From a virus (lineage: Duplodnaviria > Caudoviricetes), in the IMG/VR virus record IMGVR_UViG_2751185671_000004, positions 64,001 to 128,000 of that record: DNA of 64,000 nucleotides; one strand, given 5' to 3'. The notes beneath the pieces are model-generated. The model saw nothing but the letters and a program-made list of their open reading frames with translations, was not told where the DNA came from and ran no database searches. Shown one piece after another: positions 24,135 through 54,569 of this stretch (the stretch's first letter is position 1; each line of letters begins with the position of its first letter). The translations under genes were made by a program, and so were the position numbers.

Positions 24135-26618
24135 CTACGCCACCTGCTCTTTTTGCTTAGCGGCAGTAAAAATAATGCGTTGAATATCGTTTTTATTAAA
24201 ATTAAACGCAATTAAACAACTAGCGTGATAACGCGTTAAACTAAAGTTATAGGTGTATGTTGTTGGTAAATACTTAAGCTGTTGTGGTGTCGCGGTTTCA
24301 TTGAGCCATTGACGCGATTTTTCGGCACCCCCTTCGGTTTCGTTAAGATTGAGCCAGTCATCACACGCAGCGATACATAACGTTCTCTCGCCAACGGACA
24401 GCAGTCGTGTGTGTTGTTGTCGAGCACCCGCTACCGCATACCAATGGCCATATAAATAAAAGGCGCCTGCCCACGCAGCAAACCCTGTGGCCATCATGGC
24501 TGTACTATCGTGGTAAAGATCCACCCATTTAAAACTAGAGCGTGAAAGTAAGTCGACCTCTGTCATGACAAAGTCACTGAGTTCAGCACGGCTATCATTA
24601 GCGGCGGCAGTATTGTCAACAGGAACACTGAAGGAATAACCACATAAGGGACACAGTCGACACCCTGCGGGTATAGCAGCATCACATTCAGGACACGACT
24701 TTTGAGGGGCATCCTCACCCACCCCCTCTCCTTCTAGATTAACGTCTTGTTCAAGCTTGCCGTGAATAAGCGAGCTAGTTCCAAAGTCCAAGATAATACA
24801 ATCTGTTTTGATAATGTTAGGATGCTCATTCGGATCGACCGTGCGGAGTCCTCGCCCCACCATTTGAATCATGGTGCCTTGATAACTGTTCGGACGTAAT
24901 AGCACCACACAACTGGTGGGGGTGTAGTCATAGCCTTCGGTTAAGACATCCACATTAACAACCACTTGAGATTCCCCTGACTCGTAGCGTTCGAGCCTTT
25001 CTTTGCGTTCTTCTTTGGTTAAGCCTCCATAAATAACTTCTGTATTAATCCCGCCTTTTTGAAACGTTGACGCCACATTCTTAGCATGACTGACCGTGGA
25101 ACAAAAAATAATTGTGGGCCGGTCTGACGCTTTTTCTTTCCAATGCTTTAGAACAGACTCATTAATTAATGTTTTATTCATGATGGCGTTAACGGCATTC
25201 ATATCGAAGTCATTGGCCGTTTTTTTCACTTGCGATAACTCACCTTGCGTACCCACATCAATCACATAGGTCACAGGTTTAACAAGATGGCCTGCTTGAA
25301 TTAATTCACCTAGCGTGATTTGATCGGCAACATTGGAAAAGGTATCCACCAACCCTTTTTTATCACCACGATTGGGGGTGGCGGTGACACCATATAAAGC
25401 AAGATCGGGATTCTTCGCTCGCGCCGCATCAATGATTTTTTGATAGCTGTCTGCTGCCGCATGATGAGCCTCATCGATGACCAATAAATCTAACGCGGGT
25501 ATTTGCAGTAAATTATTTTCTCGTGAGAGTGTTTGCACCATCGCGAAAGTGGTATCACCTTGCCAGGATTTTTCGTTCGCATCAAATACAGAGGTTGTGA
25601 GCGTCGGATTAACACGTAAAAATTTAGCCTTGTTTTGTTGTGTTAATTCGTCGCGGTGCGCCAACACACAGGCTTTAGCCCCTTGATTTTTTCTAGCCCA
25701 TTGTCCTACCAGTCCCGATAACATAATTGTCTTACCGCTATTGTGTGTGACAGTGAAATCTCCCATCACATACAAGTGATCCTGGTCGACCGAAAAACCA
25801 TAGTAGTCGCCTAACCCCACTTCATGCACGGTAAAGCCTGTATGTAAGACATTCTCCTCGTGAGCACTGTCGGCTATCGTCAAGCTATAGTAGGGTATTC
25901 CATTGACCGTTTTAGATGTAGACGATGGATATAGCCCTAAGCTACGGGAAATAAAAGTCACGTCATCCGCAAGCTGTTTTGATGGGGTAGAAAACGCACG
26001 GCAGCTTTTAACAGGGTTGCTATCAGAATCAATTAACCCTTCTAGGATAGCCCCACGTGTTTCTCGTGATCCTACTTTATAATGATGAGGAATCGGCGGC
26101 GGACAATGCATTAAGTGTTTGTCACCTAACAATAACCCGAATAAATACGGATCGACAGAAGGTGCTTCTTGTTGAGGAAAATCAATTGCTGTTCGGTAAA
26201 GTTTGTGTATGCGTTTAAAGGTAGCACTTTGTTCCAGATAAGCGCTCACACTAATATTCACAATGCTGTCGGTGACATTATCCGCTCGTTTATTATCGGG
26301 GATAACGTTCCCAGTTTTGACTAACGAAAGAATATGATCCTTATTGACAGTAAACGGCTCGCCTTTTAATGGACGTATCTCATACATCCTATTGGTTCCC
26401 TGATATAAACGTTGGACATGCCGAGGGCGACTATCTGGCCCCATAAGGGTATCGCCCACCTGAATGTCTTCGACAGGTTTTAGTGTGCCGTCATACATTA
26501 ATAACAATGTGCCGGGTGCATGACATCCTGTAGGTGCCACACCTAGTGTATTTTTGTGTTTCTCGAGCGCAGCGAGGCTCCGCTCGACAAACGTGGTTTG
26601 TCGAGGTCTTAGTAACAT
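24135..26618 (-). CDS. SF2 DEAH helicase interrupted by an intein
   Basis: APTG|...|SGKT, DEAHH, TATP, QMVGRGLR, C-terminal zinc ribbon. Confidence 0.93.
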   Translation of the reverse strand: MLLRPRQTTFVERSLAALEKHKNTLGVAPTGCHAPGTLLLMYDGTLKPVEDIQVGDTLMGPDSRPRHVQRLYQGTNRMYEIRPLKGEPFTVNKDHILSLVKTGNVIPDNKRADNVTDSIVNISVSAYLEQSATFKRIHKLYRTAIDFPQQEAPSVDPYLFGLLLGDKHLMHCPPPIPHHYKVGSRETRGAILEGLIDSDSNPVKSCRAFSTPSKQLADDVTFISRSLGLYPSSTSKTVNGIPYYSLTIADSAHEENVLHTGFTVHEVGLGDYYGFSVDQDHLYVMGDFTVTHNSGKTIMLSGLVGQWARKNQGAKACVLAHRDELTQQNKAKFLRVNPTLTTSVFDANEKSWQGDTTFAMVQTLSRENNLLQIPALDLLVIDEAHHAAADSYQKIIDAARAKNPDLALYGVTATPNRGDKKGLVDTFSNVADQITLGELIQAGHLVKPVTYVIDVGTQGELSQVKKTANDFDMNAVNAIMNKTLINESVLKHWKEKASDRPTIIFCSTVSHAKNVASTFQKGGINTEVIYGGLTKEERKERLERYESGESQVVVNVDVLTEGYDYTPTSCVVLLRPNSYQGTMIQMVGRGLRTVDPNEHPNIIKTDCIILDFGTSSLIHGKLEQDVNLEGEGVGEDAPQKSCPECDAAIPAGCRLCPLCGYSFSVPVDNTAAANDSRAELSDFVMTEVDLLSRSSFKWVDLYHDSTAMMATGFAAWAGAFYLYGHWYAVAGARQQHTRLLSVGERTLCIAACDDWLNLNETEGGAEKSRQWLNETATPQQLKYLPTTYTYNFSLTRYHASCLIAFNFNKNDIQRIIFTAAKQKEQVA
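25740..26525 (-). mobile_element. Intein (262 aa) with degenerate LAGLIDADG endonuclease remnants
   Basis: Starts CHAPGT, block B TVNKDHIL, ends VTHN before Ser; YLFGLLLGD and LEGLIDSDS. Confidence 0.92.
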
Positions 26619-30437: not shown

Positions 30438-30920
30438 ATGCCGATAACAGAAACACCCCCTTCTACACTAACGCAGATTATGCAACTTGAAAGCATGACC
30501 ATGAAAGAACTGTTAGCTATGTGGCAGGAGTTCAACCCAACGCCACCCCCAGTACGCGCACGAAGCTATATTGAACGACGTCTAGCTTATGCATTACAAG
30601 TTAACGCGTTAAGTACCCAAGAGAAAAAAATAGTGGCTAAAAATACACAACGTATTGAAAGCATCAGTAAATCCTATGCACTCAATAAAAGCAAAAATAA
30701 ACAAGGAACTTATATTCCAGTACCGGGCACCATTTTGAAGCGGCTTTACAACGATGTGGAATACGAAGTGATTGTTCTATCAGACGGACAGTTTGAATTT
30801 CAAAAACAGCTCTATAAAAGCTTATCCAAAATTGCGAAAGAGATTACCGGTACACATTGGTCTGGGCCTGCGTTTTTTGGTTTGCGTAAGCCCAACACCC
30901 CATCGAAAAATAAAAAATGA
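30438..30920 (+). CDS. DUF2924 domain protein
   Basis: ERRLAYALQ, PGTILKRLY, YKSLSKIAKEITGTHWSGPAFFGL. Confidence 0.9.
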   Translation: MPITETPPSTLTQIMQLESMTMKELLAMWQEFNPTPPPVRARSYIERRLAYALQVNALSTQEKKIVAKNTQRIESISKSYALNKSKNKQGTYIPVPGTILKRLYNDVEYEVIVLSDGQFEFQKQLYKSLSKIAKEITGTHWSGPAFFGLRKPNTPSKNKK

Positions 30921-30935
30921 GCGAGAGAAAAATAG

Positions 30936-32294
30936 ATGAGCAAACATGTTATACCTAAACGCCGATGTGCTGTCTACACACGAAAATCCCACGAAGAGGG
31001 ACTGGATCAAGATTACAATTCTATTGATGCTCAAAAAGATGCCGGGCACGCGTATATTGCTGCGCACAGAAGTGAAGGCTGGATTTCAGTGAACGATGAC
31101 TATGATGATCCCGCCTATTCTGGTGGGACACTGGAGCGCCCTGCCCTAAAACGCTTAATGAAAGATATTCAAGAAAGTAAAGTTGATACGGTAGTGGTAT
31201 ATAAAATAGATCGCCTGACCAGAAGCCTCCATGACTTTTCGCAGCTAGTGGAGATATTTGAGCGAATGAATGTATCCTTTGTTTCTGTGACACAGGAATT
31301 TAACACGACTAGCTCCATGGGACGCTTAATGTTAAATATCTTATTATCCTTTGCACAATTTGAGCGTGAGGTCACAGCAGAACGTATACGAGATAAAGTG
31401 GCCTCGAGTAAAAGAAAAGGCTTATGGATGGGAGGTATTCCACCGTTCGGCTATGATGTTAAGGATAGGCTATTAGTGGTTAACAACAATGAGGCTAAGA
31501 CAGTCCGTCATATATTTTCTCGCTTTTTAGAGATAGGGTCAGCCACACTGCTTGTAAAAGAATTACGCCTTGACGGGATATCAACAAAATCATGGACAAC
31601 GAAGGATAATAAATATCGCCCTGGGAAGCCTATCGATAAAGGCTTTATTTATAAGCTTTTCCAGAATCGAACATACTTAGGTGAGATTGGGCACAAAGGC
31701 CAATGGTATGAAGGTAAGCATGATGCCATTATCGATAAGACACTCTGGGAAGCCGTCCATAAGAGGCTTGCTGAGAACTATAAGGCAAAAGGCAACACTA
31801 CGCGTGCTAAAGTTCCTTTCTTATTAAAGGGATTGCTATTTGATGCAGAAGGTCGTGCTCTCACCACGTCGTTTGCCAATAGTCGGCACAAAAATGGTAA
31901 ACGCTATCGTTATTACCTCAGTATACGTGATGCGAAAGAAGGCGCTGGCACTTCCGATTTAACCCGGTTTCCGGCCAGTGAAATAGAAGCTGCTGTGACA
32001 ACACAGGTCATGACTCTATTAAAGTCGTCAGAGATCGTCAAAGAGGTCACCACTATCGCTCAGGTTCACGACGATGAATTAGACGAAGCTATGGTAGCGG
32101 TAGCACTCACAAAGATGACGACTATTTGGGAGCAACTCTTTCCTGATGAGCAGGCACGGCTCATTCATCTGATGATTGAGAAAATTATTATCACCCCTGA
32201 TGATATGGATCTAAGGCTAAGAAAGAATGGACTCGAACAGCTGGCACAAGAAATAACACCGAAAACTTCGAAAGAGAAAGTGGTCAATGGATAA
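30936..32294 (+). CDS. Large serine recombinase (integrase)
   Basis: CAVYTRKS, SGGTLERPAL, VYKIDRLTRS, FAQFERE. Confidence 0.95.
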   Translation: MSKHVIPKRRCAVYTRKSHEEGLDQDYNSIDAQKDAGHAYIAAHRSEGWISVNDDYDDPAYSGGTLERPALKRLMKDIQESKVDTVVVYKIDRLTRSLHDFSQLVEIFERMNVSFVSVTQEFNTTSSMGRLMLNILLSFAQFEREVTAERIRDKVASSKRKGLWMGGIPPFGYDVKDRLLVVNNNEAKTVRHIFSRFLEIGSATLLVKELRLDGISTKSWTTKDNKYRPGKPIDKGFIYKLFQNRTYLGEIGHKGQWYEGKHDAIIDKTLWEAVHKRLAENYKAKGNTTRAKVPFLLKGLLFDAEGRALTTSFANSRHKNGKRYRYYLSIRDAKEGAGTSDLTRFPASEIEAAVTTQVMTLLKSSEIVKEVTTIAQVHDDELDEAMVAVALTKMTTIWEQLFPDEQARLIHLMIEKIIITPDDMDLRLRKNGLEQLAQEITPKTSKEKVVNG

Positions 32295-44042: not shown

Positions 44043-44648
44043 CTACTTACCGTCGTCCCACGAATTCAAAAAATCAGCAAGAATATCGCCGTGGCAAGCT
44101 TCTGGTTTACAAAAACACCCCAGACGCTTTCCTGCTAATTTATACACTTCAGATTTTTCTTTGTTAGGAAATTTTTCATAGTCAAAATCGTATTTATATT
44201 TACGTATGACCTCGTTTCGATCATCTCCTTCACTATACATTGAGTAAGGGTTTCCCCAGTAAGAACCTCTTCCAATGTACTCATAATTCGGCGTACTCTT
44301 CTCTTTTTGGTATTCTGGCTCAGTTTTTATATTTACAACTCGTGTTATAGCAATACTAATAACTCTTAGCGGCTTACCGCTATCCTTTATTTTTTTTATT
44401 TCTTCTCCGAACTCTTCACCATCATCAAAAATAATTGCATGAGTTATATCGTCAGTTGTCCAATTAATTAATTTTATGCTCTTCAATTTTCCTGGGTTTT
44501 CATCACACAATCTCTGTATAAAATCACACGGATCGTTTGGATAAGTTAAAACAACATCTTTGAGACTTGAAGATATTTTCTCTACTTTTCTAGAAAACTT
44601 TGAGTAGCAATTAAATAGTTTTGGATAAAGAATTAATACTGTCGCCAT
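44043..44648 (-). CDS. DUF4326 domain protein
   Basis: YIGRGSYWGNPY, LAGKRLGCFCKPEACHGDILA. Confidence 0.88.
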   Translation of the reverse strand: MATVLILYPKLFNCYSKFSRKVEKISSSLKDVVLTYPNDPCDFIQRLCDENPGKLKSIKLINWTTDDITHAIIFDDGEEFGEEIKKIKDSGKPLRVISIAITRVVNIKTEPEYQKEKSTPNYEYIGRGSYWGNPYSMYSEGDDRNEVIRKYKYDFDYEKFPNKEKSEVYKLAGKRLGCFCKPEACHGDILADFLNSWDDGK

Positions 44649-45100
44649 TAATACAAATGCTTCACTTTTAGATCTAATTCAGAATTCTCATTAAGGTACT
44701 CAACAACAAGCCTCCTATGACATAAATGCGGTTCATGCTCACTACACAATAAGCAACCTTGATCTAGCAATGCAGGCTTTACTGACCTTTCTATATTTCT
44801 TTGCCCCATAAGATTTAGAAATTTATCTTCATACTCTTCCCAGGGTATTTCACCTTTTTTATAAGCATTCAAGATGTCTTTTGTTGGAGCAAGCTCTGGA
44901 ACATGCACGTAATCCGTATTACAAAGCTCTTTTAAGAAAAATCTAAGGTCATCTCTCTTTGCAAAACCGGCAAGTTGAGAAATATTGTTTAATCGCACAT
45001 CCAAAAGTGTACTTATTTCTGATGTGCGAATGAGGTTAAAGAATGTTTCTGCGTTCTTTTTAGTAAAACCAATCGTGTATATATCTATTTCATTAGCCAT
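44648..45100 (-). CDS. DUF488 domain protein
   Basis: IYTIGFTKK, LLDVRL, CLLCSE...CHRRLV. Confidence 0.9.
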   Translation of the reverse strand: MANEIDIYTIGFTKKNAETFFNLIRTSEISTLLDVRLNNISQLAGFAKRDDLRFFLKELCNTDYVHVPELAPTKDILNAYKKGEIPWEEYEDKFLNLMGQRNIERSVKPALLDQGCLLCSEHEPHLCHRRLVVEYLNENSELDLKVKHLY

Positions 45101-45800
45101 AGCTTCTTATCTCATCGTGAAACCTTGGAAATGTATAGATTCCGTTAACCTGCAACCAGTATCCATTCCTCTCTCCAATAGCCCAGACTCTACTTAATCC
45201 CACTCTTAGATAGACTGAATCCTGTTTATTTATTAAATCAGTGACCTCGTGTAGCCTATCATCATTTTGGTGCTTTTTCGCATAGTCATGAAATCCCCTA
45301 TCAGTGATTGAAAGATAGTTGTACTTATGTCCACTATCATCTGTGAAAGAAGCTTTAATTTTTCCTGGTTTAAACTGGTCTTCATGAATGCTTAACTGAC
45401 GTGGCAAGACCTTAATCGTGATTATTGAACAATTTGCCTCTTGACCGTAGGGAATATGTTTCTGATTAGAATCAAAATCAATACCAAAACCTTGTGACAC
45501 AGAATCACTCGATGAGTTTTCTAGTATTTGAAGGAACTGCTCACCATTGCATGCACCATAAAATTTTAGGTCGGAATAACTAGCATCCTCAACATGAGGA
45601 TTATCTCTATTTTGCTGCAAAGAAATATTCCCTTTCAAGATTGCACCAGGATGAATACCTAATTCCTCACATTTAGTGCTTTTTAAATAAGGCATTGGCC
45701 GGAAACATTCGCCTGTCTTCACATCAATTACGGCTGTACAGACATTATCACCGGTAGAAAACCTTGTTAAGTCTGTGATTATTACTTCTCTCATTCTCAC
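45093..45800 (-). CDS. Dual OB-fold-like protein
   Basis: CTAVID...FRP, PHVED, LSITD, LRVGLSR...LQVNGI; typical DUF488 partner. Confidence 0.65.
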   Translation of the reverse strand: MRMREVIITDLTRFSTGDNVCTAVIDVKTGECFRPMPYLKSTKCEELGIHPGAILKGNISLQQNRDNPHVEDASYSDLKFYGACNGEQFLQILENSSSDSVSQGFGIDFDSNQKHIPYGQEANCSIITIKVLPRQLSIHEDQFKPGKIKASFTDDSGHKYNYLSITDRGFHDYAKKHQNDDRLHEVTDLINKQDSVYLRVGLSRVWAIGERNGYWLQVNGIYTFPRFHDEIRSYG

Positions 45801-46249
45801 TCCTTAAGCTTAATTTTTTGTACTCTAGTTTTCAATTTTGATGCACAAGCTACCAGAGAAAAACCCAAAACAAATAATATAAACATTATTATTATTAGAT
45901 TTCAAAGTCGCAACTTACTCATAGCAGATATTAGGTATTAGGCAAAATTTTGAGTATGTAGCATGTTTTATTGATTATTTCGGCCTGTCAATTAAAAATA
46001 ACTCATCACAAAATCAAGGACTTTTATATGCATAGAAATACTTTCCTAATCTGATAAGCGACTATAACAGGCAAGTTAAGCATATATAATTCTTCGTGAA
46101 TGTCTAGGTTAACTGACGTCAAAAGGCTTAATTCGATATAGAACTAAAAACTACAAGCAGATGCACCACATTGATGCATAACAACTTTACCAATTCTTAC
46201 AAGGACTTACCACTAAGCCTAAATACATCACAGAAAGGGTTTGAACCGA

Positions 46250-46304
46250 GTTCCCTCCCCTCCACCAATAGATAAAAGCCAACCCCTATCAGGTTGGCTT
46301 TTTT
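46250..46304 (+). other. tmRNA/tRNA 3'-end-like att remnant (...CTCCACCA) plus terminator
   Basis: cctccacca followed by AGCCAACC/GGTTGGCT-T6 hairpin; no full RNA gene. Confidence 0.4.
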
Positions 46305-46862
46305 ATGCCTGCCCCCCGCGCTACAGCCCAGTAACGGCAAGGGTTTGCGGACTTCGGCTATTTTTTAATCCCGGACTTCATAGCATCAAATTCTCTCTTC
46401 TCCCCTATATTCTCTCTCACTATGCCACGCACCACTTTCGAAGTCCGTCGATGACGAAAAATTATTTCCTTATAAATCAATAACTTAGCGACGGAATTTT
46501 ATGATGGTTTTTTGAGGGCAATGGCTACCCAAAAAGAAATACGCAAACCTTACTCAGAACGGAGAAAACCAGAGGGGTTTATAGTTAGCTAAACCAAAGA
46601 GGTAATTAACTGTACTAATAAAAACCAAATACAGCCCATAGATATAAGGAATAAAATCAATATATTAAGAGTATTTTTCAATCTTATTTTGTACTAGAAG
46701 AGAGATATCAGGCATAGGTTTATCATTCATTCATTTATTGCTAGGTATGGAAGTAGCAACAAACCTATATTAAGTATATTTCCACTCAAGAGAAAAGACT
46801 AAATATCAACCATAGGAATTGCTCAGTGGACAACAATGTGGCCACTAATCAGCAACCCTATT

Positions 46863-46890
46863 ATTTTAAGCTGCCTATACGGCAGTAAAC
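46863..46890 (-). CRISPR. Solitary type I-F repeat, degenerate (3 mismatches)
   Basis: GTTTACTGCCGTATAGGCAGCTTAAAAT. Confidence 0.8.
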
Positions 46891-46962
46891 ATACTGGAAG
46901 CGCTAGTCTGCCTACCTGAGCGTACATGGAAAACCTATTATCAACACATCCAAAGGCCAGCC

Positions 46963-47448
46963 ATGTCGATAGCAGAAACGCCCCCTTCTACACTAACGCA
47001 GATCATGCAGCTTGAAAACATGGCAATGAAAGAACTGTTAGTCATATGGCAGGAATTCAACCAAACATCACCCCCAGTGCGAGCAAGAAGTTATATTGAG
47101 CGGCGTCTGCCTTACGCATTATAAGTTAACTCGTTAAGTGCTGATGATAAGAAAATTATTAAAAGAAATACACAACGTATTAAAGAGATTAGCCAAACAT
47201 ACGCAATCAATAAAAGTAAAAATAAACAAAACACTTATATTCCAGTACCGGGCACCATTTTGAAACGACTTTATAACGATGTGGAATACGAGGTGATTGT
47301 GCGATCAGATGAACAGTTTGAATTTCAAAAACGCCCTTACAAAAGTTTATCCAAAATTGCGAAAGAGATTACCGGTACACATTGGTCTGGGCCTGCATTT
47401 TTTGGCTCTCGACAATCTAAGAAAATAGTGAAAAAATCATCAACATAA
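46963..47448 (+). pseudogene. Second DUF2924 copy with in-frame TAA at 47122
   Basis: Close DNA similarity to 30383-30890 starting at 46906; CAA>TAA. Confidence 0.9.
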
Positions 47449-47608
47449 AAATAATATTAAATGCTAAAATATTTTGGTATCAAGGTTACACAAAAAGGTG
47501 TAGTCACAAAGACTTTACCTATAGTAGGAGGCCTTATTGGAGGTGGCTGGAACTATATTGAAGTTAGTGTAATAAAAAAGAACAATTTCATCTTTTGAAG
47601 CAAACTAA

Positions 47609-47674
47609 GCATAACAAGTTGCTGATAGATACAAGACTACTGTGCTTCAGTTTTTTCAAAACAAGGCGTTATAT
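47609..47674 (+). other. attC-like site after a gene fragment (47461-47598, LPIVGGLIGGGWN, EcsC-like C-terminus)
   Basis: GCATAAC...GTTATAT; next ~150 bp resemble 43575-43720. Confidence 0.55.
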
Positions 47675-47954
47675 CGAATGATCGCACTGTAGATACTAAT
47701 GTGTCATAGCTTCTTTTTTTGTGCGGCGGAAAACTGAAAGAAGCACACGCTCGTTATCGTTGACTAAATATCTGCTTGTGATAAAAAGTTCTAAACGCCA
47801 ATCATACTTCCAATACTGACCAGTACTTGACTTAATGAAGGATATTAATTCACAAAAATAAACTGCAGTGAATAGTTAAGTGTGTGTCCACAATAGTTTA
47901 GCACAGTGAAAATTATCCTTCATACCCAGACACACGCTTAGACCAATTTTCGAC

Positions 47955-48729
47955 GGTTTTGTCGCATACCGGACTTTTGAAATTTTACCCTTTATACTGC
48001 CGGTTCATATTTAGCCACTAGTCTAAGTAGCCAATGATCATTTTGCAAAGTGTTCGCTGGTACTGCGCTTATGCACTCGGTTACCGAAATATTGATGAGA
48101 TAATGGCTGATCGCGGAACTGACGTTGACCACAGTACTTTGAATTGTTGGGTAATATTCTACGCGCCGAAATTAGAAAAGCTTTTCAAAAAAAGAAGCGT
48201 CTACCCGGGAATAAATGGCGGCTTGATGAGACGTATCTCAGAGTTAAAGGCCAGTGGAAATATTATTGTGCCGTTGGTAAACATGGTAATGCCGTTGACT
48301 TTTTACTGACCGCCAAGCGTGATAAGAAGGCGGCTCAACACTTTTTCGCAAAAACGGTTAAACACAATGGAAAGCCCTGCTTATTAAATATTGATAAAAG
48401 CGGCGCCAATAAATCAAACATAAGACAATTCAGCCAAGGTAACAATGAGCGTGTTAAAATCTGTCAGTGTAAATATTTAAACGATGTCATTGAGCAGGAT
48501 CATCGGCGAATTACAAGACTCTCCCGCTCAATGCTTGGCTTTAAGAATTTTCATTGTACACAAAAAACATTGGCAGAAATTGAAGTTGCGGTAATGATCA
48601 AAAAAGGGCAAATGAAGAAAACTATTGCTAACGGTCTGTAATGCACTAAACAATTCTATGCTTTGGCTGTGTAAGCCGCAAATCCCCTTTTAACTTTTGA
48701 CGCCGAATTAATTAGTTGCGACGAAAATT
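47955..48729 (+). mobile_element. IS6-family element with frameshifted transposase
   Basis: IRs ggttttgtcgca / ttgcgacgaaaa; WRLDETY, IEQDHR; split ORFs 48034 and 48144. Confidence 0.88.
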
Positions 48730-48799
48730 TTTAAAAACACCCAATCAAATAATGTTTGGGATCAAACCAATAATTGCACTAGCGAGTTGAATCTACATT

Positions 48800-50248
48800 A
48801 TGAAAGACAATATATTTAGAAACAAAAATAAATGGTTTTACCTTTTCTTAATGATGTGTATTACCTTCTTTAGCCTTCAGTCTCATGCGGGGAGTAAAAA
48901 GTTACGGTTTGGTTCACCTGAATCCGCAGGAATGGATTCAGAAAAAATTAAGCAGGTTGCTCAGAACCTGCAAGTTCTTGTCGATGAAGAACGTTTGGCG
49001 GGTATGGTAACCATCGCTGCGCGTCATGGCAAAATAGTTCATTACGAAACCATGGGCTATCAGGATATTGCGACAAAAACACCTATGGAAAAGGACACCA
49101 TCTTTAGAGTGTACTCTATGTCTAAACCGATAACCGGTGTCGCGATGATGATGTTGTTTGAGGAAAAAAAGTTTCGTCTTTCAGATCCTGTCGAAAAATA
49201 CATTCCTGAATTTGCTGATATGCAAGTTTATGTGGGTTTGGATGATGACGGTAATATGATCACTGAACCTGCTAATAGCAGCATAACCATTCGTCAGTTG
49301 ATGAATCACACTGCTGGTTTTGGATATGGCACAATGATGGGCAACCATCCTGTTCATGTTATGTTATCAGAGGCAAATAATTTTGATGCTGACTCCAGCT
49401 TACAAGACATGATCACTAAAATGTCTACCGTCCCTCTTTTATTTCAGCCCGGTACAAATTTCTCTTATAGCGCATCAGTAGATATTCAGGGTTATCTTGT
49501 AGAAAAATTGTCTGGTCAGCGTTTTGGTGAATTTTTGCAAGAACGAATCTTCGAGCCACTGGAAATGAATGATACCGCTTTCTATGTTCCAGTAGAAAAA
49601 CATGATCGCCTTGCAGAGGTTTATCATTATGACATCAACAGTAAGCTGGTAGAACAAGAGTTATACGGCAATGTTATTCGTTTTAAAGAAGAGCAAATGC
49701 TGGAAGCCGGTGGTTGGGGCCTGGTTTCAACCGCGATGGATTATTTAAGATTTTCACAAATGTTACTCAACGGCGGTAAATTAGATGGCGTAAGACTTTT
49801 AAAACCAAAGACTGTAAGGATGATGCGTACAAATCAGCTCCCGGAGCATCTGGTTAATAATTTGGATCCATTGCTTGGTGGGCAGCCTGGAGCAAGTTTT
49901 GGGCTTAATTTTGGCATTGTTGAAGATCCTGAAGGTAACCCGGTTGGTGGCTATTCTAAAGGGGAATACTATTGGGGTGGAGCTGCCGGAACCTGGTTCT
50001 GGATTGACCCAGTTGAAGACTTGGTTTTCGTTGGTATGGTTCAACAGTTTGCCGGTCAGCCCCAAATTCCTGATGTTAGAATGATATCGAAACACGCGTT
50101 CTATCAGGCAATTACAGACAGTGAGTCTGATGACGACGATACAGACAGTGAGTCTGATGACGACGATACAGACAGCGAGTCTGATGACGACGATACAGAC
50201 AGCGAGTCTGATGACGACGATACAGACAGCGAGTCTGATGACGACTAG
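48800..50248 (+). CDS. Secreted serine hydrolase, beta-lactamase (class C-like) family
   Basis: Signal peptide, YSMSK (SxxK), LMNHTAG, FSYS, YYWGGAAGT; acidic repeat tail. Confidence 0.92.
   Translation: MKDNIFRNKNKWFYLFLMMCITFFSLQSHAGSKKLRFGSPESAGMDSEKIKQVAQNLQVLVDEERLAGMVTIAARHGKIVHYETMGYQDIATKTPMEKDTIFRVYSMSKPITGVAMMMLFEEKKFRLSDPVEKYIPEFADMQVYVGLDDDGNMITEPANSSITIRQLMNHTAGFGYGTMMGNHPVHVMLSEANNFDADSSLQDMITKMSTVPLLFQPGTNFSYSASVDIQGYLVEKLSGQRFGEFLQERIFEPLEMNDTAFYVPVEKHDRLAEVYHYDINSKLVEQELYGNVIRFKEEQMLEAGGWGLVSTAMDYLRFSQMLLNGGKLDGVRLLKPKTVRMMRTNQLPEHLVNNLDPLLGGQPGASFGLNFGIVEDPEGNPVGGYSKGEYYWGGAAGTWFWIDPVEDLVFVGMVQQFAGQPQIPDVRMISKHAFYQAITDSESDDDDTDSESDDDDTDSESDDDDTDSESDDDDTDSESDDD
50113..50245 (+). 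repeat. 27-bp tandem repeat x5 (TDSESDDDD)
   Basis: tacagacag(t/c)gagtctgatgacgacga. Confidence 0.95.
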
Positions 50249-50270
50249 ATAGAGGACTACCGGGTTTTGT

Positions 50271-50695
50271 GGTTTTGTCACATACCGGACTTTTGAAATT
50301 CTACTCATTGTACTAGCGGCTCGTATTTAGCCGCTAGACTAAGTAACCAATGATCAGTTTTAAATCTCGCCACTATCCCCAAGAAATCATTCTGCAATGT
50401 TTTCGCTGGTACTTTGCCTATGCACTGAGCTATAGAAATATTGAAGAAATGATGGCGGAGCGAGGCATTGATGTTGACCACAGCACCTTAAATCCTTGGG
50501 TTATATTCTACGCGACGAAAATTAGAAAAGTCCTTTCAACAAAAGAAGTGTTTACCCAGAAAGAGATGGCGGCTTGATGAGACTTATCTCAAACTTAAAG
50601 GCCAGTGGAAATATTATTATCGTGCCGTTAATAAAAGCGGCGCCAATAAATCAGACATAAAACAATTCAACCAAGACAACAGTAATCGTGTTATG
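50271..50695 (+). mobile_element. Truncated IS6-family element
   Basis: Same left end as 47955 copy; MISFKSRHYPQEIILQCFRWY; frameshift and deletion. Confidence 0.85.
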
Positions 50696-50848
50696 AACTA
50701 CCTTTAACTCACTAGACGTTTTTTAGGCGAGAATAATACGTTTGTTCATACTGATTTGACGGCATGTTATCACAGTAACTGTGATGACGTGTGGCGTTGT
50801 AACACCATTTGCAGTAAGACAACCACAGTCCTATATAGACTACCAATC

Positions 50849-50877
50849 AAAGCCACCTTCTATGAAAGTGGCTTTTT
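50849..50877. terminator. Rho-independent terminator-like hairpin
   Basis: AAGCCAC/GTGGCTT-T run. Confidence 0.55.
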
Positions 50878-51001
50878 ACTTTTTTCCTGTGCTTAACAAC
50901 CGAGTAGTGTCGATAGCTTTTAACAAGATGGCCAGTTTAAGTGTACTACCATCATTGTTCTATATATCGTCCAGTATTTGCAAGTTAAAAAGTATTGACT
51001 T

Positions 51002-51310
51002 CTAGCGTTGAGGGCGTTGTATGATGTTAAGGATCTCTCGATCACTAGGACGTAGTTGTTCTCTAGTTCTTCTTCGAACAGATGATCTTGTAGTTGGTGT
51101 ATTTGCCTCAGGATGAGAATTTTGTATCAGACTTTCGATGGCATTTTGACTAGGGCGCGACTGTGTTTCGTGAGTTCGTCTACGAACACTATAATTCAGC
51201 AATGGTTCCCTAGCGGTAGTTCTTCTATGACGATTTGTATTTGTATTTGTATTTGTATTTGTTTGACTTACGGGTCGATGTGAACTACGTGATGATCTGT
51301 TTACTGGCAT
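51002..51310 (-). CDS. Arg/Ser/Thr-rich orphan protein
   Basis: AGGAG RBS on minus strand; TNTNTNTN repeat. Confidence 0.55.
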   Translation of the reverse strand: MPVNRSSRSSHRPVSQTNTNTNTNTNRHRRTTAREPLLNYSVRRRTHETQSRPSQNAIESLIQNSHPEANTPTTRSSVRRRTREQLRPSDREILNIIQRPQR

Positions 51311-51886
51311 TAAAACTCCTATTTTATAATATTAATGTCGATCTGTAAGTATGCTATTAGCGGAAAAAGTTCTTAAAATCGACATCATATTATTTGGGAT
51401 AAGGTAAATATACCAACCAACTTAATTTATAGCGGCAGAAAATAATGCACCCGCGCCTATAAAATCAGCTCTCGATAAAAGTTAATATTGTAGAAGTAAT
51501 AGATTAACTCTAGTTAATGTGAGCTTTGTATCAATATCATCTACTATTTTTTTTGTTAAATCGTGCTATTTTCAGTGTGTTGTATTTGTCAAACATACGA
51601 AACTCCAAAATCAGTAAAAAAGTGTGAGTTATAATCGAAAAACAAACCAAAATAGACTCTAGCTAATATATTTTTAGAAAAAATTTGGAGCATTGAAATA
51701 GGCTTATTACTATTAGCACGTCATTTACTGTAATTTATATTGAAATATTCTCAAACTTTTAGCTGAGTATAATTACTCATCATATAATTTAAAAAAATAA
51801 GAGAAAAGTATTTATGCCCATCAGGTATTCCAGGTGCTTATTATTGTAATAAAGGTCATTGCGTCAACAGACTTATAGACAACAGA

Positions 51887-52588
51887 ATGAGGGAAAGACA
51901 CAATGATTATCATCACAGTCATTCAACACAATCAGTTTTTCCTTCAACTCATAATTCGTTAACTCAATCGCAACCTTCGTCTATAGCGTTGAGATTACGC
52001 TTGAAGCCAAGCCCAACAAAAGCTAGCGCTAGCTCGTCATCTAGAATGTCAAGGTCGACACAGATAGGAAAACAAATTTTTGATAAATATTCTCCCTCGC
52101 AATTTACTTCTCTTCGTAATGATCAAAAATCTTATTTACGATCTTACTATGATTATATGAAATGGCCTCATCATTCGAGCCTTGAAATAAAAAGATTAGT
52201 CAAAAGAGACTCGTCTGAAGTAGAAGATCTTCTTGGTCAGAAGAGACAACATCTCTCCAGAAAAGAAAGCGCAAAGTTATCTCGATTAGCCAGCGGTCGA
52301 GACAGCTATAATAGTTATCTATCGAAGACTAAAACAACATTCACTCTGAGAGAACGGCAATATGCACGTGAATACTTAATATCAAAAGGTAAAGATATAC
52401 CATCTGTATTTGCGAAGGAAAGATATACAAGAGATGACGCAACTGCCAAGCCAGCGGCATATGATAGCGCAGACTCTCGACGACAAGCCTCATATCGATA
52501 CGAAGCTCGGAAAGCAGCGGAAAGATCTACAGATTCAGCAAAAAGAGCAAAATTAAACGATCCGAATTGGTGGGCATACTTACAGTGA
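51887..52588 (+). CDS. Basic Ser/Arg-rich orphan protein
   Basis: 233-aa ORF in AT-rich region. Confidence 0.6.
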   Translation: MRERHNDYHHSHSTQSVFPSTHNSLTQSQPSSIALRLRLKPSPTKASASSSSRMSRSTQIGKQIFDKYSPSQFTSLRNDQKSYLRSYYDYMKWPHHSSLEIKRLVKRDSSEVEDLLGQKRQHLSRKESAKLSRLASGRDSYNSYLSKTKTTFTLRERQYAREYLISKGKDIPSVFAKERYTRDDATAKPAAYDSADSRRQASYRYEARKAAERSTDSAKRAKLNDPNWWAYLQ

Positions 52589-52652
52589 TAGTAATGTTAT
52601 CAAATTACTTATTTTTTGATAAATGAAAAAATATAAGTTTAACGTTAACATT

Positions 52653-52680
52653 TTTCTAAGCTGCCTATACGGAAGTGAAC
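52653..52680 (-). CRISPR. Solitary type I-F repeat (1 mismatch, in stem)
   Basis: GTTCACTTCCGTATAGGCAGCTTAGAAA. Confidence 0.88.
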
Positions 52681-52900
52681 AACAGTAAAAATCCCCAGTG
52701 GACTTTAATTTCTGTGACTTAATAAAGTCTATAAAATAATATAGCAATTGGTGTAACTCTGCGTTTTTGAACTATAAGACAGAATTAGCTTTCTACTTAC
52801 TCTTGAATTTATAAGATTAATTACAGGGAACCATTTTTTTCTTTATTTCACATATTTATTACTATTGTAAACACTGCAACTGATTTTAAAAGAGAAAACA

Positions 52901-53614
52901 ATGCCTAGACGTATAGATCGAAAAACAAGCCCTTTGATACCTCTGCACCATAAGCATTTGACACTTAATAAGAGGTTGAGGCACACAGAGCCAAGACCTC
53001 CAGTAATGCACCGGCGCCGCTCGTTTCACCACACGGCTCCAGAAACTAGAGCATTAAAAAGGCGGCATTCCCATAATCGTACAAGGCCACAACCTAGACC
53101 ATTAATGCAAAATCAATTTTTTAAGTGGCCGGTGAAGAAAAGAAGCAGAGAATATGATAACGAGACTATAGGTCATGCTAGAGCACCTGCTATTAGAGGC
53201 CGCAAAATAGATCGTTTGAGTAACGAACAGCTCAAGCGTCGTGAGTTAACATTTCATAATGGTAGAGTTTTTGACTCTAAAGGAAATCGATTTGATACAC
53301 GTGATTCGACAGAAAAAATGATAGGTAGGCCACGAGTGAAAACTGACAAGGCAAACTTTATTATGACAGGGAATGGAAAAATCCGAGTAGATAAACATCC
53401 GACCGTTGGCAAAAGGCATCATACGTCTTTAGCAAGAAAAGGAGGTGCTGTCGCAGGTGCTGGTAAAATAGCTGTATATAATGGTCATTTAGTCGATGTT
53501 ACAGATGAGAGTGGCCATTATAAAACTACTCGTAAAATGATGAAAAATGTGGAGAGGCAATTTAAAGAGAATGGTATAAATACTACAGGAAAATTTACCC
53601 GTTTTTTTAGTTAG
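52901..53614 (+). CDS. Basic protein with C-terminal HxS...AG...SGHY domain (toxin/effector-like; motif shared with plant IQM proteins)
   Basis: HHTSLARKGGAVAGAGKIAVYNGHLVDVTDESGHYK. Confidence 0.65.
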   Translation: MPRRIDRKTSPLIPLHHKHLTLNKRLRHTEPRPPVMHRRRSFHHTAPETRALKRRHSHNRTRPQPRPLMQNQFFKWPVKKRSREYDNETIGHARAPAIRGRKIDRLSNEQLKRRELTFHNGRVFDSKGNRFDTRDSTEKMIGRPRVKTDKANFIMTGNGKIRVDKHPTVGKRHHTSLARKGGAVAGAGKIAVYNGHLVDVTDESGHYKTTRKMMKNVERQFKENGINTTGKFTRFFS

Positions 53615-53693
53615 ACAAGGTTTGATGATATACCCACAACTAAGAATTAATACTAGTTAAAACGATTGTCACACGTAATTATTTTGAAGCAAT

Positions 53694-53726
53694 AAAACCC
53701 TTAGTAAATTTTTTATCAAGGGTTTT
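53694..53726. terminator. Bidirectional terminator-like hairpin
   Basis: AAAACCCTT/AAGGGTTTT. Confidence 0.55.
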
Positions 53727-53790
53727 GTTCTTTAAAGATAATGAAATACTACAGAATTTTCTCACATAAAAATGGAGTTTTAAATAGATA

Positions 53791-53818
53791 TTTCTAAGCT
53801 GCCTATACGGCAGTGAAC
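53791..53818 (-). CRISPR. Consensus type I-F repeat adjacent to leader
   Basis: GTTCACTGCCGTATAGGCAGCTTAGAAA. Confidence 0.93.
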
Positions 53819-53950
53819 AATACAAAAACCACAATAAGCATCTGATTATTAAAGAACTTTTATGCTTTTTAGCATAAATACCCTTTTTTATTTTCTTACA
53901 TCAAACCCACGTAAAATGCGGACTGTGGTGATACTCGAAAAAAAGGGTAC
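53819..53950 (-). promoter_or_regulatory. Type I-F CRISPR leader
   Basis: IHF consensus AATCAGATGCTTA (53835-53847); ACCCTTTTTT/AAAAAAGGGT inverted motifs (53880-53889, 53939-53948). Confidence 0.8.
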
Positions 53951-54569
53951 AACCGAAGAATAGTGTAAATGAACAATTACTCATCTCACAAAGACTAAGG
54001 TGACAATATTTATACTAACAGCTTGGCACCTATATTTTCATTCTGAGCGCGACAAACTCTCATTTACACCAGAGGCCTTTAAAAAAGTATCTTCTAGTTT
54101 CACTTAAGAGCCAATATGAATGCAGGATAATAATAAGTTAAGTTTTTCACAAAACATGTCATATGATTGGTGCATACTCAAATATGTATGATAAAGACAC
54201 TAGTAATTTGCTGGCTTTATATAAGACTCACTCTATATCAATTCAATTTAGCTGAAGTATTTTCAATCTATTGTGACTTACGTGAAAACTTAAGCAGCTT
54301 CACAGTCTCACATAAAAAATATAACAGAGAATAATAATAAAGCTTATCGATGAGATGCATCATGGGATCGCACTATAGAATTACACATTACTTTAGAGCC
54401 CTAACGCCAGGAATTAAAAAGGTCTTACGTATTTTTGGTAATTAAGCGACGAATGCCTCGGTGAGTGTTGTCGCACGATGGGTAAAATCGGGGTATATCC
54501 CTTGCGATAAAGTATAGGAAGTGATGCTGTTGGATAGCGCCGATTTATTGGCAAAGTTAGGCCATTACA

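Follow-up and report, generated by a model that had tools for sequence, protein, structure and literature searches.

The locus described here is, with a probability that we put at roughly 70%, an orphan type I-F CRISPR array in decay that insertions have broken up, and one of three paralogous copies of a segmental duplication in a genome of 7.1 Mb. Both ends remain, the leader with the first repeat and the terminal repeat with the trailer; of the internal repeats one is left, its hairpin broken, and all the intervening sequence is non-CRISPR DNA. As judged from sequence, the three repeats are probably what is left of an old cas-less array: its first repeat, its last and one from the middle. 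The front end appears still able to take up normal spacers, which argues for a decaying array and not for a new gene-capture device, and we regard the locus as a clean worked example of array decay, and not of a new mode of acquisition, leaving genes in the place of spacers. A sequence-only reading of the window (i.e. the whole 64-kb stretch of DNA analysed) had offered three alternatives: an array that captured gene-sized inserts, solitary repeats producing decoy or regulatory RNAs, and an array disrupted by insertions. The last of these fits best, supported by the paralogy and by the mosaic interior, while the first two are left without positive support.

Repeats, leader and trailer

A search of the 64-kb window for the 28-nt I-F repeat with up to three mismatches returned exactly three copies, all on the minus strand (Table 1); a match was found in 0 of 100 shuffles. 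Their number, orientation, positions and mismatches (0, 1 and 3) had been correctly given by the sequence-only reading, as had the gaps between them, which measure 1110 bp (first to middle) and 5762 bp (middle to terminal) instead of the ~32 nt of a spacer. All three score above the gathering score (35) of the Rfam family CRISPR-DR4, with 49.1 bits for the first, 37.7 for the middle and 39.1 for the terminal repeat, and the type I-F repeat form (28 nt, 5-bp stem, 5-nt loop) is found at this locus. The first repeat is identical to the repeats of array C from the same genome. The hairpins of the first and terminal repeats have an energy of -8.6 kcal/mol each, and the G8T substitution changes that of the middle repeat from -8.6 to -1.9 kcal/mol, a value not better than those of shuffles. 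Each repeat is solitary, with no other full or partial repeat within 100 bp, and the window as a whole contains, as had been noted before, neither a repeat-spacer unit of 60-nt period nor any cas gene.

Table 1. Features of the interrupted array, in window coordinates
Feature	Position	Strand	Description
Type I-F leader	53819-53975	-	alignable with the array A-D leaders of this genome
First (leader-proximal) repeat	53791-53818	-	0 mismatches; perfect I-F consensus of this genome
60-nt stretch after first repeat	53731-53790	-	includes a degenerate copy of the 3'-terminal ~40 nt of the 237-aa gene
Bidirectional intrinsic terminator	53694-53726	.	10-bp stem; between first repeat and convergent gene
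237-aa gene	52901-53614	+	basic N-terminal half and polymorphic-toxin-tip-like C-terminal domain; convergent with array
Middle repeat	52653-52680	-	1 mismatch, G8T in stem
233-aa orphan ORF	51887-52588	+	3' end 64 nt from middle repeat
102-aa orphan ORF	51002-51310	-	low complexity
Partial IS6-family copy	50271-50700	+	IS6 transposase N-terminal fragment
482-aa serine hydrolase	48800-50248	+	beta-lactamase fold; PF00144, E 1e-69; bracketed by two IS6 copies
IS6-family element	47955-48700	+	split transposase, PF13610 DDE_Tnp_IS240; overlapping ORFs of 91 and 165 aa
Decayed DUF2924 gene	46906-47448	+	PF11149 in two pieces; nonsense codon 54
15 nt between DUF2924 remnant and terminal repeat	46891-46905	-	possibly the 3' rest of a spacer
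Terminal (third) repeat of ancestral array	46863-46890	-	3 mismatches
Trailer	46187-46862	-	common to arrays A, B and plasmid contig C3; 84-85% identity downstream of array B/array A terminal repeats

The leader with its IHF site and inverted motifs, proposed from the window alone, proved genuine. An AT-rich stretch of ~155 nt directly upstream of the perfect repeat can be aligned with the leader of each of the four regular arrays (A-D) and has in common with these leaders the inverted motifs ACCCTTTTTT / AAAAAAGGGT and an IHF-like box AATCAGATGCTTA, the identity to the leaders of arrays A and B being 88-92%. At the opposite end, the third repeat and the ~700 bp that follow are homologous to arrays B and A, i.e. 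they form a degenerate terminal repeat with its trailer, and this repeat ends in CTTAAAAT, as does the terminal repeat of array B. Two of its three changes (A25 and T28) are common to the terminal repeats of arrays A and B. They are thus inherited features of a terminal repeat, and the 0-1-3 series of mismatches does not reflect progressive decay, contrary to the suggestion that decay increases with distance from the leader. The homology to DUF2924 ends 15 nt before the terminal repeat, and these 15 nt show no significant match to any spacer. A T-rich flank of ~10 nt before the middle repeat was considered as a remnant of a leader and rejected, with only 8 of 15 positions alike in a T-rich sequence.

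Paralogous arrays and related strains

The genome contains arrays of 50, 24, 15 and 9 repeats, the present locus, and a leader with one 20/28 repeat (~C1:1720693-1720870), and it displays every stage of array decay. Together with arrays A and B the present locus forms a set of three paralogous orphan arrays. In genome coordinates, the segment 1756778-1764030, which ends at the first repeat, matches 1982868-1994059 (array B) and 1838030-1843936 (array A), so that the leader, the first repeat and 7 kb upstream have a counterpart upstream of both arrays. The segment 1770932-1771634, with the third repeat at its start, corresponds to the terminal repeat plus trailer of array B and to the array A trailer; the homology to array B starts exactly at the third repeat and continues into the trailer. 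By this paralogy, a single ancestral array had its two ends at what are now the first and last repeats.

The previously suggested scan of the genome for I-F cas genes and further solitary repeats revealed, besides the leader with the 20/28 repeat, a single cas operon (C1:3190499-3199185), located outside the window and 1.43 Mb from the locus. It comprises the only copy of cas1 in the genome (C1:3190499-3191485). The cas1 and cas6f frames match Pfam families, the remaining ones agree in size with cas2-3 and csy1-3, and all reading frames are full-length. Spacer 2 of array A is identical to spacer 4 of array D, which indicates that repeat-mediated exchange between arrays occurs in this genome. 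A search of the mini-array at C1:3071894-3072022 for CC-flanked targets returned only chance-level seeds.

One relative is L021, a near-identical strain from a Tara metagenome, in which the leader is followed by six perfect repeats with five unique spacers of 32-33 nt, and then by the same repeat/gene junction as in the present strain. Spacer 2 of L021 matches C1:2846319-2846350 at 31 of 32 positions, with a CC PAM. Five canonical spacers, one of them matching a CC-flanked genome site, suggest that spacers can still be acquired at the leader-repeat stub. In nature, it seems, a leader with one repeat only, distant from the cas genes and with foreign DNA behind it, has begun again to take up spacers in the normal way, a point of some wider value. 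The Cas1-Cas2/3 complex of the single distant cas operon would serve the stub in trans. L021 is the only close strain, and its contig stops before the middle repeat. It is 99.5% identical to the present strain over the 237-aa gene, and towards the leader 64 differences were counted over 1351 nt (BLAST identity 95.3%). We considered separate histories for the two sides and rejected the idea; the leader-side differences cluster in three patches/indels and so allow no conclusion on this point.

A second metagenome contig, L019, contains the repeat/60-nt/terminator/gene arrangement beside a degenerate repeat in a different neighbourhood. This degenerate repeat is leaderless, with only ~20 nt of leader-like sequence kept. 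The repeat with the 60 nt is 92% identical to that of the present locus and the 237-aa gene 77%, while the only other gene in common with the L019 organism shows 91% identity. In the third homologue, L020, no repeat is present within 126 nt after the gene. Searches of metagenome and genome collections did not return the junction 23-mer, no part of the 9.5 kb has a match in same-genus genomes, and a near-identical copy of the trailer-side genes is absent from public contigs, L024 having just the three-gene operon in common. For the purpose of inferring decay, paralogous arrays in one genome and one metagenome strain suffice, and they guard against over-reading similar loci.

DNA between the repeats

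The 60-nt stretch following the first repeat has no match in phage, IMG/VR or metagenome collections, and its resemblance to the 3' end of the 237-aa gene extends over positions ~27-60 after the repeat, i.e. outside the guide position. The fold predicted for 53680-53818 (139 nt, minus strand) has an energy of -31.4 kcal/mol (z -4.8) and places a hairpin before a U-run; the terminator is conserved in both L019 and L021. The product of the stand-alone 237-aa gene resembles the C-terminal tip of a 3687-aa Rhs/YD protein encoded by the same genome (28% identity), and a profile search with it yielded 1448 relatives, mostly C-terminal domains in long proteins. It has no match in Pfam, PADLOC or PDB sequences, and its family is absent from the GTDB species representatives and JGI metagenomes searched. 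The AlphaFold model of the toxin-like domain is confident (pLDDT 90), and a Foldseek search with it returned nothing at E < 0.001. The best VIA-align match, human phosphohistidine phosphatase, was rejected as a basis for naming the fold, being too weak (Z 4.8). The L021 allele carries an in-frame stop at codon 181, which fits passenger DNA and not an integral part of a CRISPR locus. A mobility gene, terminal repeats and a target-site duplication are all absent from the 1110-bp unit.

The 5762-bp interval is clearly a mosaic from multiple events, composed of mobile-element debris without an intact element. The 233-aa ORF has no match in Pfam or PADLOC, and among 5.8 billion proteins it matches itself alone. 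The partial IS6 copy is 80-86% identical to the copy at 47955-48641, and the more complete element has IS6 matches on plasmids. The serine hydrolase between them ends in an acidic tandem repeat, with 27-nt tandem repeats at 50086-50253. Four paralogues of the decayed DUF2924 gene in the genome remain alike beyond the point where this copy breaks off, i.e. the break point is internal to the element and is not an element end. An intact DUF2924 copy (30438-32294) is followed by a large serine recombinase; the remnant by the terminal repeat lacks its own. No intact recombinase or integrase was found between the repeats, nor an integrase combined with attL/attR within the repeats as in the prophage PhiAP1.1.

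Under the decay reading, which the earlier list had included and which draws its two ends from the A/B paralogy and its interior from the decayed IS6 copies, the nonsense-bearing DUF2924 gene and the orphan genes, the interior would have come via several insertion, recombination and deletion events. The cargo would consist of orphan ORFs, the IS6-bracketed hydrolase, the prophage-type DUF2924 remnant and the toxin-tip-like gene, which would have a promoter and a terminator of its own. Transcription from the leader would read the first repeat and halt at the bidirectional terminator ~100 nt further, giving at most a handle-tagged RNA without a recognisable target in this strain, and the middle and last repeats would be relics with no role. 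Several points count against this reading. We infer the insertion events and do not see them, since no relative with an uninterrupted array was found; full 28-nt repeats abut non-spacer DNA, with the 15 nt before the last repeat as the sole candidate for a spacer remnant; the 1110-bp unit lacks signs of mobility; the recurrence of the repeat/60-nt/gene junction in L019 could mean that the repeat travels with the gene; and the spacer common to arrays A and D points to repeat-mediated exchange between arrays.

Spacer and array dynamics have been reviewed (PMC8047081), and Tn7-like elements inserted in arrays have been described (PMC11837452). Like other interrupted orphan or degenerate arrays, the present one is cas-less, retains a leader and a degenerate terminal repeat with trailer, has an interior broken by IS copies and prophage debris, and belongs to a genome with several co-oriented arrays and a single cas operon. 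Unlike them, it keeps in this strain only three repeats and no spacer, and one of its intervals is occupied by an intact toxin-tip-like gene that could apparently be expressed and that shows no recognisable mobility function. It also resembles a minimal CRISPR locus (leader and one repeat), with nothing array-like behind the repeat and with five canonical additions at that place in L021, but it is a relic found in nature, not a locus that was engineered, and its acquisition is deduced from the comparison of strains.

Gene capture and functional RNA as alternatives

An alternative that we regard as unlikely is that CRISPR repeats act as recombination or integration sites, through which repeat-flanked gene-sized pieces enter arrays and move between them, the 237-aa unit being one such cassette. 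This could come about by homologous exchange from repeat to repeat, by means of a site-specific recombinase with a repeat-like att site, or through off-size integration by Cas1-Cas2/3. The 1110-bp unit is indeed bounded by two full repeats and occupies the leader-proximal position, but neither a donor copy nor a circular form nor an empty site was found, and none of the relatives found lacks the unit together with one repeat, L021 keeping the junction with five normal spacers in front of it. The recurrence of the arrangement in L019, beside a degenerate repeat and among other neighbours, speaks for movement, yet it is equally explained by a decayed descendant of the same old junction, and the L020 homologue lacks the repeat.

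The exchange of a unit between arrays A and D is in line with this alternative. Precedents are known in Tn7-like elements that target repeats (PMC11837452) and in PhiAP1.1, a prophage of Streptococcus pyogenes that integrates into CRISPR repeats of a type II-A system, with the repeat as attB (bioRxiv 10.1101/2020.10.09.333658). The present locus resembles the latter in kilobase DNA between repeats, in erosion of the array over time and in the remnant of a prophage-type recombinase module by the terminal repeat. It differs from this II-A case in that neither an intact integrase nor an attP/attB relation could be demonstrated, the inserts are mosaic, and the junction lies 15 nt from the repeat; moreover, the interval contains no integrase, and the DUF2924 remnant, broken inside the element, has lost its recombinase.

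Also against this alternative, I-F Cas1-Cas2/3 measures prespacers of 32-33 bp. All 99 spacers examined (from the four regular arrays and L021) passed the 26-39 nt length filter, those of arrays A, B and L021 being 32-33 nt long, and no cas1 lies beside the array or within 1.4 Mb of it. Capture of gene-sized inserts mediated by Cas1 is unsupported, and the multi-event origin of the 5762-bp interval tells against capture in general. A further form of the proposal makes the I-F repeats portable recombination sites, so that the toxin-tip gene with its promoter, terminator, repeat and ~60 nt travels and lodges between CRISPR loci, L019 being a second independent landing. We consider this a long shot; were it true, arrays would double as cassette platforms, and CRISPR arrays would be linked to gene capture.

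Highly improbable, in our judgement, is that an RNA made of the first repeat and the 60 nt, driven by the leader and ended by the terminator, has a function, either processed by Cas6f to a crRNA-like regulator or decoy or as an antisense transcript. As a guide it would direct the Csy complex in the manner of the crRNA-like CreA/CreR regulators (CrePA, bioRxiv 10.1101/2024.01.05.574328; see also bioRxiv 10.1101/2023.03.03.530964), as a decoy it would titrate Cas6f/Cas7f like the Racrs (PMC10651486), and as an antisense transcript it would control the toxin-like 237-aa gene. Small RNAs with 5'-CUUAGAAA ends at 53790 would be expected. The leader and hairpin are intact, the terminator lies ~100 nt downstream, and the 139-nt RNA folds well (see above); besides, mature CreA sets a precedent with an 8-nt handle, a 25-nt guide and no 3' hairpin (bioRxiv 10.1101/2024.01.05.574328). 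However, a genome-wide search for targets of the three pseudo-spacers (CC plus the first 14 nt, up to two mismatches) gave counts of 5, 6 and 3, within the shuffled-seed controls, and CC-flanked seed matches do not exceed these controls at gene promoters either. The best local matches cover 8 of 10 seed positions, and none of them falls in a promoter region, be it that of the 237-aa gene or that of the 233-aa gene. Targeting of the CreA/CreR type was rejected, as PAM-proximal promoter complementarity with 5'-CC was not found. The stretch alike to the gene's 3' end is not at the guide position, and the hairpin of the middle repeat is broken. The origin of the post-repeat sequence from an old spacer in common with array A was likewise rejected (best local score 12, P = 0.12 vs shuffles).

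The higher conservation of the repeat with the 60 nt than of the gene in L019 might suggest a constraint on the RNA, but with the other common gene at 91%, the non-coding identity of 88-92% is about the neutral level, the unusual divergence being that of the 237-aa gene. L021 has five spacers between the leader and the 60-nt stretch, and its copy of the gene has the stop codon. The locus shares with the Racr and CreA loci single I-F repeats, none with another within 100 bp, a cognate I-F host and, in one case, an adjoining toxin-like gene. It differs from them in that its two outer repeats descend from the ends of an array, in that no guide-promoter complementarity bears a PAM, and in that it lies neither in or beside the cas operon, which is 1.43 Mb away, nor on any recognisable virus or plasmid. 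By definition, Racrs are carried by viruses and plasmids and have their own promoter (PMC10651486), whereas the first repeat here stands behind an ordinary array leader. A decoy or regulatory role, as the earlier reading had proposed, is not supported.

One observation that a decoy could account for, by aiding tolerance of the host's own self-targeting spacers, is the presence in the genome of three perfect, CC-flanked self-targets. Their tolerance means that interference must somehow be held off, and it makes this genome a candidate host for undiscovered I-F inhibitors, a second point of some wider value.

The leader, the repeats and their paralogs

The window corresponds to C1:1753821-1817820 of a 7.1-Mb genome (G000; 41% G+C, four contigs), read on the minus strand, the minus strand of the window being the plus strand of the genome. 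A search allowing up to three mismatches found exactly three copies of the 28-nt type I-F repeat in the window, all on the minus strand, where the sequence-only reading had placed them, with 0, 1 and 3 mismatches and gaps of 1110 and 5762 bp, as it had given; none of the 100 shuffled controls yielded a match, and all three repeats exceed the gathering score of Rfam CRISPR-DR4. The I-F hairpins of the first (leader-proximal) and last repeats fold with -8.6 kcal/mol each; the middle repeat has a stem change, and its fold (-1.9 kcal/mol) is no better than that of shuffled sequence. The proposed type I-F leader is also borne out: the ~155 nt that precede the perfect repeat can be aligned with the leaders of all four regular I-F arrays of the genome (A-D, oriented like the three repeats), hence these elements are a true leader and first repeat.

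Repeat loci and genes discussed in the text (window or genome coordinates)
Feature	Position	Strand	Remarks
First repeat	window 53791-53818	minus	perfect 28-nt match
Middle repeat	window 52653-52680	minus	G8T
Last repeat	window 46863-46890	minus	three changes
237-aa gene	window 52901-53614	plus	convergent, between first and middle repeats; relatives P0002, P0003, L021:93-806
Serine hydrolase, beta-lactamase fold	window 48800-50248	plus	tandem repeats 50086-50253
Array A	genome, from 1843906		9 repeats
Array B	genome, from 1994032		15 repeats
Array C	genome, from 2626438		24 repeats
Array D	genome, from 3199316		50 repeats; follows the sole cas operon
Degenerate three-repeat mini-array	C1:3071894-3072022	minus	locus L022, about 5895-6023
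Leader-like stretch and one decayed repeat (20/28)	~C1:1720693-1720870	plus	outside the window

In BLAST against the same genome, the 7 kb that end at the first repeat are 83-92% identical to the region upstream of array B and also match, in part, the region upstream of array A and the plasmid contig C3. Similarity to array B (84%) starts exactly at the third repeat and covers the terminal repeat and trailer of that array; the match to the trailer of array A begins about 200 nt beyond that point. The terminal repeat of array B has the same CTTAAAAT end as the third repeat, whose A25 and T28 also occur in the terminal repeat of array A. The paralogous flanks and common terminal-repeat changes mark the first and third repeats as opposite ends of a single ancestral array, and two of the three "mismatches" of the third repeat as inherited terminal-repeat features rather than, as had been proposed, decay increasing with distance from the leader. 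The upstream flank and the trailer of this array family also occur on a segment of the plasmid contig (C3:23372-33907), separated by about 8.3 kb and with no leader or repeat; this is a fourth copy of the segment whose array was lost, or else a copy that never contained one.

A scan of the genome for I-F cas genes and other solitary repeats, as earlier suggested, revealed a single cas operon, 1.43 Mb from the three-repeat locus. Pfam recognizes cas1 and cas6f in it, and the remaining open frames are of the lengths that cas2-3 and csy1-3 should have. Beyond the regular arrays and the three repeats, a whole-genome covariance-model scan detected only two stray repeat loci. One is a mini-array with short spacers (19 and 26 nt), a second repeat whose hairpin is preserved by paired changes (CTACC...GGTAG) and a GC hairpin downstream; it is a better candidate for a crRNA-like regulator or decoy than the three repeats are, and no convincing CC-flanked target of it was found. 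The other is a leader-like relic, 73% identical to the leader in the metagenome contig L021. Three spacers (18 and 31 of array D, 8 of array B) match their own genome at 32/32 with a 5'-CC PAM, at C1:2845710-2848355 and C1:3030460-3033479, both outside the window; four more spacers match these sites with 1-4 mismatches, one PAM being mutated. Since the genome targets itself although the cas operon frames are full length, interference is probably blocked, e.g. by anti-CRISPRs on the targeted elements.

Contents of the two intervals

In the 60-nt stretch after the first repeat, the final ~40 nt of the adjacent gene recur in degenerate form, and a strong bidirectional terminator lies between the first and middle repeats. 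The 237-aa protein encoded there is a member of a large family, so far without a name, of C-terminal domains of toxin type (1448 profile hits); in its C-terminal half it shares 28% identity with the tip of an Rhs/YD protein of 3687 aa encoded by the same genome. The domain, often terminal in proteins of up to 7249 aa, is characterized by the motif HH[ST]SL ... AGxGK/E ... SGHY, with Lys in the AGE motif of the 237-aa protein and Glu in most relatives. No relatives were found in Pfam, PADLOC or PDB; the structure model is confident (pLDDT 90) and matches no fold clearly, its similarity to phosphohistidine phosphatase being weak (Z 4.8). The gene is not followed by an immunity-type ORF.

Between the middle and last repeats we found a 233-aa ORF without relatives anywhere searched, a 102-aa low-complexity ORF, and two IS6 copies (one partial, one frameshifted) flanking the beta-lactamase-fold hydrolase. 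These IS6 copies are diverged, and the arrangement resembles a decayed composite transposon; the C-terminal end of the hydrolase comprises at least five 27-nt tandem repeats encoding DSESDDDDT. A DUF2924 gene contains a nonsense codon and has lost the serine recombinase that follows intact copies. Alignment with four paralogous DUF2924 regions indicates that this copy stops at an element-internal point 15 nt before the last repeat; these 15 nt could be what is left of a spacer, and match no known one.

Relatives in metagenomes

No similar sequence was found in genomes of the same genus, and among 5.8 billion clustered proteins just three are related to the 237-aa protein. L021, a Tara metagenome contig from a sister strain, is 99.5% identical over the gene and displays the same leader, six perfect repeats with five 32-33-nt spacers, the identical post-repeat sequence, and the gene, with an in-frame stop at codon 181. 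Its spacer 2 matches C1:2846319-2846350 of G000 at 31/32 with a 5'-CC PAM, in an element also matched by five array D spacers. Canonical spacers ahead of the same junction, together with the PAM-flanked match, suggest that this leader and repeat served canonical I-F acquisition when foreign DNA already lay behind them. Similarity of L021 to the window ceases 39 nt ahead of the gene start, and the contig stops short of the middle repeat.

In L019, a contig from the same sample, a solitary, degenerate repeat with the 60-nt stretch behind it (together 92% identical to the window locus) is followed by a miniature inverted-repeat element, the terminator and the gene, whose protein is 63% identical; no leader is present beyond about 20 nt. 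The miniature element (L019:846-1010, ~165 bp) has terminal inverted repeats CTCGATTCCGAGG and duplicated TTTAAA. Since the single other L019 gene has a counterpart elsewhere in G000 with 91% identity, background divergence looks like about 90% identity, with the toxin-like gene (77% nt, 64% aa) apparently the outlier. The third contig, L020 (protein 65% identical), is similar over the gene and roughly 80 nt of promoter sequence and has no repeat in the 126 nt after the gene.

Origin of the locus

With paralogous flanks at both array ends and a mosaic interior, we favor, with a probability of about 70%, the proposed array broken by insertions: a fossilising orphan array, left with its two ends and a single internal repeat around lodged genes and mobile debris, its leader-repeat stub being still competent for acquisition. 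This kind of object is already known. The distant cas operon would be used in trans, and the leader transcript would end at the hairpin terminator; the order and mechanism of the insertions we infer.

Repeat-directed capture of gene cassettes, by repeat-by-repeat recombination or by integration into repeats, is an unlikely alternative. Spacer 2 of array A (about C1:1843994-1844025) is identical over 32 nt to spacer 4 of array D, which provides evidence for exchange of repeat-spacer units, as the two arrays differ in repeat variant; mobile elements are known to integrate into CRISPR repeats (bioRxiv 10.1101/2020.10.09.333658; PMC11837452), but no donor, empty site or integrase was found here. 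Cas1-mediated capture of gene cassettes, also proposed, we consider unlikely: cas1 is not nearby, all 99 spacers of the regular arrays and L021 pass a 26-39 nt filter (those of arrays A, B and L021 are 32-33 nt), the 5762-bp interval is plainly multi-event, and the predicted presence/absence polymorphism was not found among the relatives located. A decoy or regulatory RNA function is very improbable, as CC-flanked seed matches of the sequences directly following the three repeats do not exceed shuffled controls genome-wide or locally, the middle hairpin is broken, Racrs are described from viruses and plasmids, downstream of their own promoters (PMC10651486), and CreA guides match a promoter adjoining a CC PAM within the cas locus (bioRxiv 10.1101/2024.01.05.574328), whereas here the cas operon is distant.

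Elsewhere in the window, 44043-45800 (minus) harbors a three-gene operon (dual-OB protein, DUF488, mSLOG/DUF4326), of which the middle product has a match (E 1e-67) to PDC-M45C, a candidate defence family in PADLOC; the operon is a mobile unit, 75% identical in the metagenome contig L024 with different flanks. Positions ~1-33000 comprise a prophage with lambda-type portal and large terminase, a module of DUF2924 and a large serine recombinase (30438-32294), and a helicase (24135-26618) split by an intein with a homing-endonuclease domain.
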